Below are positions 48,441 through 52,059 of a stretch of DNA of 64,000 nucleotides, one piece after another. Source of the DNA: Desulfobacterales bacterium (GTDB lineage: Bacteria; Desulfobacterota; Desulfobacteria; Desulfobacterales; Desulfococcaceae); assembly GCA_041390465.1 (NCBI GenBank), contig JAWKPW010000001.1:26225-90224 (forward strand), given 5' to 3'. Numbering within the stretch: the first letter of the stretch is position 1; each line of letters begins with the position of its first letter. The notes beneath the pieces are model-generated. The model was not told the origin of the DNA. It was given only the letters and a program-made list of their open reading frames with translations, and did no database searches. Position numbers and translations under genes: made by a program.

Positions 48441-49082
48441 TCATTCCCAGGGGGCAGCCGATATTTCCGATGCCAGTGATTTCATTGCTGCATCAAGCTG
48501 CTGCATAAATTCCCAACGGCTGCCGGACCGGTAAAGGGCTTCACCCACAGCAGCATCGCAGAAAAACGGAACCGGCAGCCATTCGCCTTTGGGCAGTGCT
48601 TTTCCAAGCCCGTGCATGAATACGGGAATCACAGGAATGTCCGGATGCTTTTCCGCAAGACGGGCAATTCCCGATTTGAAAGATGCCATGCGTTCCGGTT
48701 CTCCGCGTGTCCCTTCCGGAAAAAATATCAGAATATGGCCCTGTGCAAGGGCTTCCGAGCAGGGGGCCAGAACATCTTCCCCTTTGTCAGAAACTCTGCG
48801 TTTTATCGGGACAATCCCAATGATTTTCAGGGCAAACCATGCGAGACACCTGTTTTTCAGAAAATAGTCGCTGGCAGCAACAGGCCGGATTTTTTTCAAA
48901 AATTGCAAAGGAAACAGCGTCATCAGCACCATGGTGTCCAAATGGCTGTTGTGATTGGCAACAACAATGGAAGGCATCCCGGCCAAAAGTCTGTCCGGGT
49001 GTCTGACATTTATGCCCAGGATGATCAGAATAACCGGCCTGACAATCAGAACAAAGAACAGGTATCGGAGAAAATGATTCAT
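48441..49082 (-). CDS. plsC: 1-acyl-sn-glycerol-3-phosphate acyltransferase family (PlsC-type)
   Basis: 213 aa. H(X)4D motif 'NHNSHLD' and 'FPEGTR' motif. N-terminal TM. Confidence 0.8.
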   Translation of the reverse strand: MNHFLRYLFFVLIVRPVILIILGINVRHPDRLLAGMPSIVVANHNSHLDTMVLMTLFPLQFLKKIRPVAASDYFLKNRCLAWFALKIIGIVPIKRRVSDKGEDVLAPCSEALAQGHILIFFPEGTRGEPERMASFKSGIARLAEKHPDIPVIPVFMHGLGKALPKGEWLPVPFFCDAAVGEALYRSGSRWEFMQQLDAAMKSLASEISAAPWE

Positions 49083-49085
49083 GGT

Positions 49086-50027
49086 TCAGAAATACAAATA
49101 CCTGACAAAGTGGAGAAACAGCGGGGCAGTGCAGGTCAGACTGTCAACCCGGTCAAGAATCCCGCCGTGACCGGGCAGCATACTGCTGCTGTCTTTGATT
49201 TTCAAATCCCTTTTCAATGCGGATACAGTAATATCCCCCATGAATCCGCCAAGTCCGATGATAATGCCCGCCATAAGAGCGTGTCTGTGATTCATTGGTG
49301 TAAGATACGGGGCGGTTAAGACTGCAAGCAGGGTTGTTGTTGCCACACCGCCGATCAGACCTTCCCAGGTTTTGTTCGGACTGACCACAGGAACGACTTT
49401 GTGACGACCGAAACTTTTTCCCCAGACATACTGGGCAACATCATTGAGTTCTGTAAGGCAGACAAGATACAGCACAAGTCCGGCTCCGCCTGCCGCGGGA
49501 TTTCCCTCTTTTGGCAAAACCAGCAGGAAAGCCGCATGGCTGAGACTGAAAACCGTGGTCATCATTCCCCAGTGAAGGGTTCCGGCAGCACGCAGAAATC
49601 CATCTGTTTGGCCTTTTAATACCATCCGCATGGGAAGATACAGAAACATGTAGACCGGAATGAAAATGATGAACATGCCGTACCATTCCGTATATACCCA
49701 CCAGTACTGAACCGGAATGGCAAGATAAGCCCAGAACAGAACCCGGCGATCCGCTCTCCGGGTCGGGATCAGGGACAGGTATTCCTTGAGCGCCAGAAAG
49801 GAAATAAAGGCAAAGAAAGCCAGTGCCATTCCTTTGCTCAGGACAAGAACGCCCGCAAACAGGGCCGTAATCAGCCACCATGTCCGTATCCGGCTGTCCA
49901 GTTCCCGGTAATTCCGATCCGGATGTGATTTTTTCAAAACAATGACAGCGATGGTGGCAATCACCAGAACACCAATGATGACAGTCACAGCATATTGCAC
50001 ATTTGGCGGAGGAGGCTGCCATTTCAT
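49086..50027 (-). CDS. cdsA: Phosphatidate cytidylyltransferase (CDP-diacylglycerol synthase)
   Basis: 313 aa, multi-TM. C-terminal signature '[26 protein letters not shown]'. Confidence 0.85.
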   Translation of the reverse strand: [313 protein letters not shown]

Positions 50028-50659
50028 GATCCGATCTCCTTCAGTGCCTGACGCGCCCGGTTGACAGTCGTCAGCACGGACAGCAGCAGTACGATGAACA
50101 GAACCGCATTCAGCCAGAAACCCGCAGGAACACCCATTGCCACAAGCAGGGCGATCACGCCGAATACAAAAGCACGGTCACTTTTGCCCATGGGACCGTC
50201 ATAGCCTCGGCCTGCCCCGATCATCACAGCGATCACACCGGTCATTTCACTGATAATTGCCGCTATGACCAGCAATGTCACCAGACAGGGTGAAAAGCCC
50301 GGAATCAGAGCAAAGGGAAGATACAGCACCGTATCGGAAACCACATCGCCCAGTTCATTTAAAATGGCGCCCAAAGGCGTTTTCATCTGATGTTCACGGG
50401 CAAGCATTCCGTCAATAGCATTCAAAGCCATACGGACAAAGAGCACAGCCGGAATCAGAAACAAGATTTGCCTTATCCTGCCAAAAGTCAATACAGTCAT
50501 TCCGGCAAAAAACGAAAGCAGAAGAGCGGAAAGCGTTATATGATTTGGGCGTATGCTGTTTTTTGCCATCCAAAGGCATACAGGGCGAAGGAAATTCTGA
50601 AACAGGGGCTTCAGATCATAGATTGTCATAATTTTTTCACCTTTTGCCGGAACCGTCAT
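50024..50659 (-). CDS. CDP-alcohol phosphatidyltransferase family enzyme (PgsA/PIS-like; head-group specificity unknown)
   Basis: 'NHITLSALLLSFFAG...DGMLAREHQMKTPLGAILNELGDVVSD' CDP-OH_P_transf signature (variant: N for the first Asp of the D-x3-D pair). Start ATG at 50659 overlaps the stop of the upstream gene (ATGA). Its own stop overlaps the cdsA start. Confidence 0.75.
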   Translation of the reverse strand: MTVPAKGEKIMTIYDLKPLFQNFLRPVCLWMAKNSIRPNHITLSALLLSFFAGMTVLTFGRIRQILFLIPAVLFVRMALNAIDGMLAREHQMKTPLGAILNELGDVVSDTVLYLPFALIPGFSPCLVTLLVIAAIISEMTGVIAVMIGAGRGYDGPMGKSDRAFVFGVIALLVAMGVPAGFWLNAVLFIVLLLSVLTTVNRARQALKEIGS

Positions 50660-52059
50660 TTTCTTAACCGGCAAAAAAATTCCCCCTCCACAGTGCTTCC
50701 CTTCCGAATGACAGCCTGACGATCAGACAGGTTCCGGATATGCACATCTCCCAAGAGTTTCACACCGGCCTCAAAATGCACATCCCCTTCAATGGCAAGG
50801 GATTCACATTCTGCCAGAGAGGGAACCCCATCGGGAAAACGGGCGTCAAAGTCATCAATTTTTCCGTAATAACGATCATCCAGAGTGATTTTCAGGGTAT
50901 CGGATCTCCGGTGGGGATTGAGAATCAGGTTTCTTTTTTCTGTGAAAAGAAAATAATCCGAGCGCACCAGCAGCAGATCACTGCATTTTTTGACCGGAAA
51001 AAAGCGGGTGCGGGGAACACAGACTGCGCCTGCGCCTGCAAAAAGGGAAATGGCCGCGCCCATGGCACTTTCCACCTGAAACACGGTAGGACTTTCCCTG
51101 TCTCTGGGATCAAGGGATTTGGGATTGAGAATCATGGGCAGACGGACAGTCTTTTCCTTTTGGATCAGATTTTTCAGAAAATTCAGATTGACCCACAGAT
51201 TGTTGGTATTGAAGAAATGATAACGCTCAATATCCCGGAAGGCATCCAGTTCCTCTTCCGGACACTGGGCAGATTCCCGCAGCAGCAGGTATCCGTTCCT
51301 GTGCCGTGCCAGATGACCGCCCTTGACATCAGCCGGGGTTCTCTGTGCGACTTCCATCATAAAGGGGAAATTCCTTTCTGCAAAATACCCCAGCAGAGCC
51401 ATATCCGTTGTTGCGCCCAGATTGTCGGAATTGGAAATAAAGGCATGGCAGATGCCCTTTGCCAGCAGTTGATCCAGAAGTCCCGAAGTGCTCAAAGCCG
51501 TGTAAATATCCCCGTGGCCGGGCGGATTCCATTCCAGAGAGGGATCAGCAGGCCAGAGAGCCGGGGCAAGGTTTTCCCGCAGAATTTTGGGGAATTTGTG
51601 CTGCAGAAAACAGACAGGCATTTGGGCAGGCCGGATTTTTTCCAGTGCGGACAGAGTCTCGGCATGGGTGCTGAAGCTGTTCATCAGGGCCAGTTCCATG
51701 CGATATTCCGAAGACTGAAGCAGCAGAATTTCCAGAAAAGACAGGCCGTTTCTTACTTCCAGCAGGGATTTGGGGCCGGTCAGGCCCATACTCGTTCCCA
51801 GACCTCCGTTGAGAATGATGCGCACAGCATGGGGAAGATATTTCTCCCCTTTTTCCGCATACCCTGACAGTTCTTCCATATGCGCAATATCCTCAGGACG
51901 CACCGGGAATATCTCCCTGTCAGAAATCAGACCGCTTTCGCCGCTGACAATTTTTTTGTAATAATGGGAAAATGTTTCCGTCACAATGTCCGGAAGTCCT
52001 TCTTTTTCCATTTTTGAAACAAATGCCCGCAGGTATTTCGGTGGTTCCGGCTGTGCCAT
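50656..52059 (-). CDS. UDPGP-family nucleotide-sugar pyrophosphorylase (UTP--glucose-1-phosphate uridylyltransferase / UDP-GlcNAc pyrophosphorylase type)
   Basis: 467 aa. 'VRIILNGGLGTSMGLTGPKSLLEV' nucleotide-binding loop characteristic of the eukaryotic-type UGPase/UAP family, plus a C-terminal left-handed helix region. Confidence 0.8.
   Translation of the reverse strand: MAQPEPPKYLRAFVSKMEKEGLPDIVTETFSHYYKKIVSGESGLISDREIFPVRPEDIAHMEELSGYAEKGEKYLPHAVRIILNGGLGTSMGLTGPKSLLEVRNGLSFLEILLLQSSEYRMELALMNSFSTHAETLSALEKIRPAQMPVCFLQHKFPKILRENLAPALWPADPSLEWNPPGHGDIYTALSTSGLLDQLLAKGICHAFISNSDNLGATTDMALLGYFAERNFPFMMEVAQRTPADVKGGHLARHRNGYLLLRESAQCPEEELDAFRDIERYHFFNTNNLWVNLNFLKNLIQKEKTVRLPMILNPKSLDPRDRESPTVFQVESAMGAAISLFAGAGAVCVPRTRFFPVKKCSDLLLVRSDYFLFTEKRNLILNPHRRSDTLKITLDDRYYGKIDDFDARFPDGVPSLAECESLAIEGDVHFEAGVKLLGDVHIRNLSDRQAVIRKGSTVEGEFFCRLRK

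Follow-up and report, generated by a model that had tools for sequence, protein, structure and literature searches.

A UDP-glucose-type pyrophosphorylase gene next to a predicted ynbA-ynbB-acyltransferase lipid cassette in a Desulfobacterales bacterium

Phospholipid synthesis draws on three kinds of enzyme: PlsC-type acyltransferases, which add an acyl chain to a lyso-lipid; CdsA-type enzymes, which form CDP-diacylglycerol (CDP-DAG); and CDP-alcohol phosphotransferases, which hand the phosphatidyl group on to an acceptor. Escherichia coli also carries the ynbABCD operon, which encodes the CDP-alcohol phosphatidyltransferase homolog YnbA and the CdsA paralog YnbB. E. coli YnbB makes CDP-DAG in vitro, does not substitute for CdsA in bulk phospholipid synthesis, is dispensable, and on overproduction increases MPIase, a glycolipid that has N-acetylglucosamine-pyrophosphate-diacylglycerol (GlcNAc-PP-DAG) as its first intermediate (PMC6362211, PMC7018664, PMC11413397). 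We analyzed 64 kb of the genome of a Desulfobacterales bacterium (the window), in which four minus-strand open reading frames (ORFs) fill positions 48441-52059 exactly: a UDPGP-family pyrophosphorylase gene, a CDP-alcohol phosphatidyltransferase gene, a cdsA-like gene, and a plsC-like acyltransferase gene. An earlier note had described a translationally coupled operon of four genes here, and the ORF list and the Pfam matches bear out the four genes. We consider it likely that the locus joins two units of separate evolutionary history, a UDP-glucose pyrophosphorylase (UGPase) gene and a ynbA-ynbB-acyltransferase cassette.

The evidence for the second unit starts with the transferase. It aligned with E. 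coli YnbA at 48% identity over 197 of 201 amino acids (E 4e-55, 161 bits), was colinear with it over the full length of about 200 amino acids, and had it as its best match. The match to E. coli PgsA reached 26.6 bits and was confined to a 28-amino-acid motif. The Pfam profile CDP-OH_P_transf (PF01066) gave 33 bits and the NCBIfam pgsA profile TIGR00560 gave 20 bits versus a cut-off of 109.1. The catalytic motif reads N70-x2-D73-G-x2-A-R-x8-G87-x3-N91-x3-D95-x3-D99, with positions at least 90% conserved throughout the family. Residues N70, D73, G74, N91, E92, and D95 reach that level, and D99, E128, P146, and R152 are invariant in 42 YnbA sequences, down to 36% identity. The family form of the motif (N-x2-DG-x2-AR-x8-G-x3-NE-x2-D-x3-D), a GPxGKSDR loop, and an adjacent same-strand YnbB-type CdsA paralog were all present. 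The variant D-x3-D motif pointed out earlier is real and has the same form across the YnbA family. Separation of the transferase from housekeeping PgsA also held up, given 26.6 bits versus 161 for YnbA, a TIGR00560 score under the cut-off, and asparagine in place of the first and third aspartates of the canonical D-x2-DG...D-x3-D motif. Very many homologs exist, with identities of about 60% across Desulfobacterota, Gammaproteobacteria, and Lentisphaerae, and clusters at 50% identity include 210 representatives that match at E 1e-30 or better. In the searchable literature we found no paper assigning a function to YnbA or a product to the cassette, and a search for a cluster of UDPGP, CDP-alcohol transferase, and CdsA genes returned no relevant paper. 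The Bacillus subtilis ynbA and ynbB genes of elongation factor P (EF-P) modification are unrelated genes of the same name, and an Acinetobacter match to ynbA/ynbB was an artifact of the string "KynBAba."

Next, we compared the transferase with enzymes whose acceptors are known. The best NCBIfam matches were archaetidylinositol phosphate (AIP) synthase at 74.4 bits (E 1e-20; cut-off 180) and phosphatidylinositol phosphate (PIP) synthase at 43.6 bits (cut-off 170), and Protein Data Bank entry 6h53 matched at E 1.7e-8. In an AlphaFold2 model of YnbA (pLDDT 86.5), the fold matched PIP synthases at TM scores of 0.70 to 0.77, PgsA at 0.55, and phosphatidylserine synthase at 0.41. By sequence and modeled fold, YnbA is nearest to the bacterial PIP synthases, of which Mycobacterium tuberculosis PgsA1 is one. 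However, its scores are far below the AIP and PIP synthase cut-offs, and key positions differ. When aligned with the M. tuberculosis enzyme, the metal ligands D68 and D89 become Asn70 and Asn91, while the catalytic D93 is kept as D95 and the phosphate-binding R155 is kept as the invariant R152. The inositol phosphate marker R94 is replaced by Val96 and S132 is replaced by the invariant Glu128, so that of the inositol-phosphate-binding residues R94, S132, R155, and R195, only R155 has a retained equivalent. Because these key positions of PIP synthase are altered, we judge inositol phosphate an unlikely acceptor. None of the cassettes in the loci examined had a gene for inositol-phosphate synthase in its vicinity. 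E. coli is not known to make inositol lipids.

The product of the cdsA-like gene matched E. coli YnbB at 47% identity over 304 amino acids (residues 10 to 313; E 6e-89, 256 bits), and the resemblance took in both the catalytic C-terminal half and the half N-terminal to it. E. coli CdsA, in contrast, matched the C-terminal 128 amino acids only (residues 181 to 304; 106 bits). The Pfam profile CTP_transf_1 (PF01148) covered positions 49086-50027 at 233.8 bits, and the NCBIfam CdsA profile NF008635 scored 113.7 bits versus a cut-off of 385, with profile positions 121 to 277 alone being matched. The translation carries the complete CdsA-type catalytic signature (PROSITE pattern) in a 27-amino-acid segment. 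The acyltransferase (positions 48441-49082) matched Pfam Acyltransferase (PF01553) at 82 bits and carries the motifs HNSHLD (HX4D) and FPEGTR, and it scored 65.7 bits with the NCBIfam 1-acylglycerol-3-phosphate (AGP) acyltransferase profile TIGR00530, versus a cut-off of 102.95. The names CdsA and PlsC given to these two proteins previously are supported for the superfamily only, and both proteins score below the NCBIfam equivalog cut-offs. By full-length, reciprocal comparison, the transferase and the CdsA-like protein are orthologs of E. coli YnbA and YnbB, not housekeeping PgsA and CdsA, an identity that the earlier note had not recognized.

These assignments bear on whether the three lipid genes could be the organism's housekeeping PlsC, CdsA, and PgsA, organized as an operon. 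The three enzyme superfamilies and the order of acylation, CTP activation, and phosphatidyl transfer are those of the PlsC-CdsA-PgsA pathway, the window holds no other copy of these genes, and some sources auto-annotate the transferase homologs as PgsA. However, all three proteins fall far below the NCBIfam equivalog cut-offs, and the best reciprocal matches of the transferase and the CdsA-like protein, YnbA and YnbB, are found in E. coli alongside cdsA and pgsA. Furthermore, YnbB's N-terminal half is unlike CdsA, and the transferase deviates from PgsA both in its catalytic motif and in its fold (TM 0.75 with PIP synthase versus 0.55 with PgsA). The genes are instead a distinct set of clustered paralogs with a variant transferase motif, and the E. 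coli counterparts are dispensable, with YnbB failing to complement a cdsA deletion (PMC6362211). We regard a housekeeping role as extremely improbable.

To place the cassette among other bacteria, we scanned metagenomes with a YnbA alignment and retrieved 80 diverse loci. A YnbB homolog and a PlsC-like acyltransferase adjoined YnbA on the same strand in 24 of the 24 loci that had 2.5 kb or more of sequence on each side. With A for YnbA, B for YnbB, and T for the acyltransferase, four gene orders occurred: ABT (30), BTA (12), TBA (7), and ATB (5). Natural fusions were found among the 50%-identity representatives and joined YnbA to YnbB (P0319), to the acyltransferase (P0350, P0370), or to YnbC (P0259). 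This adjacency, the variable order on one strand, and the fusions indicate joint action of the three proteins. An apparent acyltransferase-YnbA fusion in locus L116 was discarded as an artifact of stop-to-stop ORF calling in high-GC DNA, the two genes lying in different frames.

The same trio of a 201-amino-acid transferase, a 313-amino-acid CdsA-like protein, and a 213-amino-acid acyltransferase was also present in Syntrophotalea carbinolica, a Methyloglobulus metagenome-assembled genome, and a 7.2-Mb genome. The E. coli operon resembles the window locus in its 201-amino-acid YnbA, in the order of ynbA before ynbB with overlapping stop and start, and in the N...N-x3-D-x3-D motif. It differs in that no counterpart of the acyltransferase gene occurs in the ynbABCD operon of strain K-12, which has instead ynbC (hydrolase plus Methyltransf_20) and ynbD (PAP2 plus dual-specificity phosphatase), both missing from the window locus. 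The two arrangements are combined elsewhere. Syntrophotalea and the 7.2-Mb genome have a fusion of hydrolase and Methyltransf_20 behind the trio, and Syntrophotalea has a PAP2 plus dual-specificity phosphatase protein there as well. YnbC and YnbD were present in a minority of YnbA loci. The lipid genes of the window are, on these comparisons, a further copy of the known ynbA/ynbB cassette in its common three-gene form.

We then clustered the flanking ORFs of 84 loci, consisting of the 80 metagenome loci and loci L001, L003, L005, and L168. The conserved partners were YnbB, the acyltransferase, YnbC, YnbD, methyltransferases, and a small EamA-like protein, and no inositol-phosphate synthase, glycosyltransferase, or nucleotide-sugar enzyme appeared as a conserved partner in these 84 loci. 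The methyltransferases that recur in other cassettes belong to unrelated families (Methyltransf_20 in YnbC, CARME-like, and O-methyltransferase-like), and the small EamA-like membrane protein recurs too (L116, 101-1835; L003, 11990-13335; L001, 10493-13626). The recurrent methyltransferases hint at a methylated head group, and together with the EamA-like protein they are consistent with a lipid that is possibly exported or flipped.

The first unit has a different history. The UDPGP protein matched PF01704 at 411.8 bits over profile positions 2 to 412 of 413, and its closest solved relatives were the UGPases of Trypanosoma brucei (E 1.5e-111) and Leishmania major (E 1.9e-99). UGPases from trypanosomatids, fungi, plants, and humans matched at E 1e-111 to 1e-72. 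In contrast, UDP-sugar pyrophosphorylase (USP) and UDP-N-acetylglucosamine (UDP-GlcNAc) diphosphorylase (UAP) matched only at E 1e-6 and 7e-6, respectively. That UGPases match so far ahead of the UDP-sugar and UDP-GlcNAc enzymes argues for a UDP-glucose-type pyrophosphorylase, which is the predicted identity of the protein. The gene is common in Desulfobacterales. We sampled 80 species-level genomes of this order and limited each count to those with enough flanking sequence. UDPGP lay directly after ilvE in 63 of 69 genomes, at a median distance of about 41 nucleotides (nt) (loci L011 to L087), and was followed by ynbA in 3 of 62. All three of the latter genomes are the closest relatives of the window organism, with at least 83% identity (L008 to L010). 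The fetched flanks of the 80 diverse metagenome YnbA loci contained no UDPGP gene (0/80), and the next-closest YnbA, at 70% identity in a member of the Desulfobacteraceae, lies in an unrelated gene context. The 3/62 and 0/80 counts and the linkage to ilvE indicate that the UDPGP-ynbA adjacency is a recent, clade-specific juxtaposition. As judged from gene order, the conserved partner of the UGPase gene is ilvE and not the lipid cassette, of which the UGPase gene is a neighbor but not a conserved member. In the window itself, the ilvE-UDPGP region (52059-53348) has a gap of 197 nt with a terminator inside it.

The earlier note had placed the pyrophosphorylase in a dedicated lipid route together with the three lipid enzymes. 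A dedicated route remains plausible for those three enzymes, but a place for the pyrophosphorylase in it is not supported, because its adjacency is not conserved beyond close relatives and lacks comparative support. As a functional part of the operon, the UGPase would provide the three lipid enzymes with UDP-glucose or glucose-1-phosphate, from which they would make a glucose-bearing phospholipid or glycolipid anchor. The tight UDPGP-ynbA arrangement in the window and the three relatives, with no terminator between the genes in the window or L008, is consistent with such a role, as is the use of glucose-1-phosphate as the substrate of UGPase. In addition, YnbB is tied to GlcNAc-PP-DAG, the MPIase precursor formed from CDP-DAG and a sugar-1-phosphate (PMC6362211). 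However, the linkage is restricted to one narrow clade and UDPGP is otherwise partnered with ilvE. Moreover, the four-gene unit includes no glycosyltransferase, and the cassette occurs in organisms and contexts with no nucleotide-sugar gene nearby. We consider this role of the UGPase quite unlikely.

Some points nevertheless weigh against the explanation by two units. The UDPGP-ynbA adjacency has been kept in all three relatives, L008 through L010, with no terminator in L008, and there may be a local functional link between UDPGP and the cassette within the clade. The substrate of the acyltransferase might be the product or the head group instead of lysophosphatidate. Finally, no second cdsA or pgsA gene was found within the 64-kb window.

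The locus has the following features, with the ynbA start fixed by homolog alignment.

50656..52059, minus strand: UDPGP-family UTP--glucose-1-phosphate uridylyltransferase of the eukaryote type, 467 amino acids (PF01704)
50630..50655, minus strand: spacer of 26 nt from the UDPGP stop to the ynbA start, with a GGTGA ribosome-binding site and no terminator (sequence and terminator scan)
50024..50629, minus strand: ynbA ortholog, 201-amino-acid CDP-alcohol phosphatidyltransferase (E. coli YnbA alignment)
49086..50027, minus strand: ynbB ortholog, 313-amino-acid CdsA paralog of the CDP-diacylglycerol synthase type (E. coli YnbB alignment)
48441..49082, minus strand: PlsC-like (LPLAT family) acyltransferase, 213 amino acids, third cassette member (PF01553)
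52217..52248, minus strand: intrinsic terminator after ilvE, a 12-bp stem followed by a T-run (terminator scan and sequence)
48304..48372, minus strand: long, imperfect hairpin (arms of 27 nt) that begins 68 nt beyond the stop of the acyltransferase gene (inverted-repeat search and folding)

Overlapping junctions had been claimed throughout the locus, and one of the three is in fact an overlap. The ynbA/ynbB junction is a true ATGA overlap at 50027-50024. The ynbB/acyltransferase junction reads TGA-ACC-ATG, with a 3-nt spacer and no overlap, and UDPGP and ynbA are separated by 26 nt. An in-frame ATG at 50659 overlaps the UDPGP TGA, and its use as the transferase start was ruled out by the lengths and N termini of homologs. 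A length of 200 to 203 amino acids and the N terminus MT[IL]Y are common to E. coli YnbA and more than 100 homologs, and relatives L008 and L010 have a GTG start at the equivalent codon of ynbA, behind a spacer of roughly 100 nt. These observations together place the ynbA start at the ATG at 50629 and make the junction a 26-nt spacer. The scan detected no terminator in this spacer or in the roughly 100-nt spacer of L008.

The ilvE terminator, a strong one, marks the start of a UDPGP-ynbA-ynbB-acyltransferase transcription unit in this organism, and the packing of the genes and the positions of terminators indicate that the four genes are probably one transcript. At the other end, the hairpin at 48304-48372 is probably the 3' boundary of the unit. 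Its inverted copies would not be expected by chance, and its folding energy is -52.1 kcal/mol (z, -7.35), with no T-run following. The hairpin may be a terminator or a repetitive extragenic palindromic (REP)-like element, and no copies of the repeat were found in related loci. The GC content (0.49 to 0.50) matches that of the remaining window, and composition gives no sign of recent foreign origin.

In the explanation that we favor, the first unit would be the Desulfobacterales UGPase gene that normally lies behind ilvE, and the second a self-contained group of general phospholipid pathway paralogs. In the second unit, the PlsC-like enzyme would add an acyl chain to a lyso-lipid, in the simplest case turning lysophosphatidate into phosphatidate. 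YnbB would then use CTP to convert phosphatidate to CDP-DAG, and YnbA would move the phosphatidyl group onto an acceptor to give a minor, specialized lipid and not bulk phospholipid. The cassette would, in this clade, have landed directly behind the UGPase gene, probably sharing its transcript, and the UGPase would not be integral to the cassette pathway. Of all this, the comparisons establish what the genes are, that they are orthologous to E. coli ynbA and ynbB, that the cassette is conserved, that its linkage to UDPGP is not, and that the active site is a variant, whereas the order of reactions, the acceptor, and the cotranscription are the parts that we infer.

The cassette could generally make an MPIase-like sugar-pyrophosphate-diacylglycerol, with YnbB and/or YnbA joining CDP-DAG to a sugar-1-phosphate and the acyltransferase feeding a dedicated phosphatidate pool. 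N70 and N91 in place of metal-binding aspartates would leave a less negative site in YnbA, which could suit an anionic phosphate nucleophile. On the other hand, no CDP-alcohol phosphotransferase is known to form a pyrophosphate bond. MPIase biosynthesis shares with the cassette a YnbB ortholog, a CDP-DAG intermediate, and a sugar-1-phosphate cosubstrate (PMC6362211, PMC11413397), and overproduction of E. coli YnbB brings MPIase back or increases it, without doing the same for bulk phospholipid (PMC6362211, PMC7018664). However, MPIase is known from E. coli only, the MPIase work gives the step to CdsA and YnbB themselves and not to YnbA, and a ynbB knockout has no MPIase defect (PMC6362211). 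A general product of this kind is unlikely in our estimation. A more specific version, in which the cassette makes a previously undescribed lipid class, YnbA itself forming a sugar-pyrophosphate-diacylglycerol anchor with its Asp-to-Asn site fitted to sugar-1-phosphate, and in which the cotranscribed UGPase was recruited in this clade to balance glucose-1-phosphate and UDP-glucose, strikes us as highly doubtful.

Other features of the window lie away from this locus. A type II/IV secretion ATPase on the minus strand (1899-3601) appears to be split into two ORFs, one with MshEN and the N-terminal part of T2SSE (2843-3601) and one with the remainder of T2SSE (1899-2870). It sits in a cluster of secretin, T2SSF, and PilM-like genes (668-10154), and the split reflects a frameshift, a pseudogene, or an assembly error. 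Two adjacent giant signaling proteins are encoded on the plus strand (14671-25932). The first is a 1,464-amino-acid hybrid histidine kinase with solute-binding and PAS domains, and the second has 2,270 amino acids and combines a Ser/Thr kinase, an AAA_16 STAND ATPase, GAF and PAS domains, and a hybrid histidine kinase. Besides ilvE, the window carries a second class IV aminotransferase gene (33496-34374, plus strand; 292 amino acids).

Taken together, the finding is mostly ordinary, a lineage-specific neighborhood of a housekeeping UGPase gene and a known paralog cassette. The interest rests on the orphan cassette, which is widespread, is strongly conserved at about 60% identity across phyla, and combines a variant transferase, a CdsA paralog, and a PlsC-like acyltransferase. 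With the lipid that it makes identified, a gap in bacterial membrane biology would be closed, and the part that YnbB plays in E. coli, which is debated, would become clearer.

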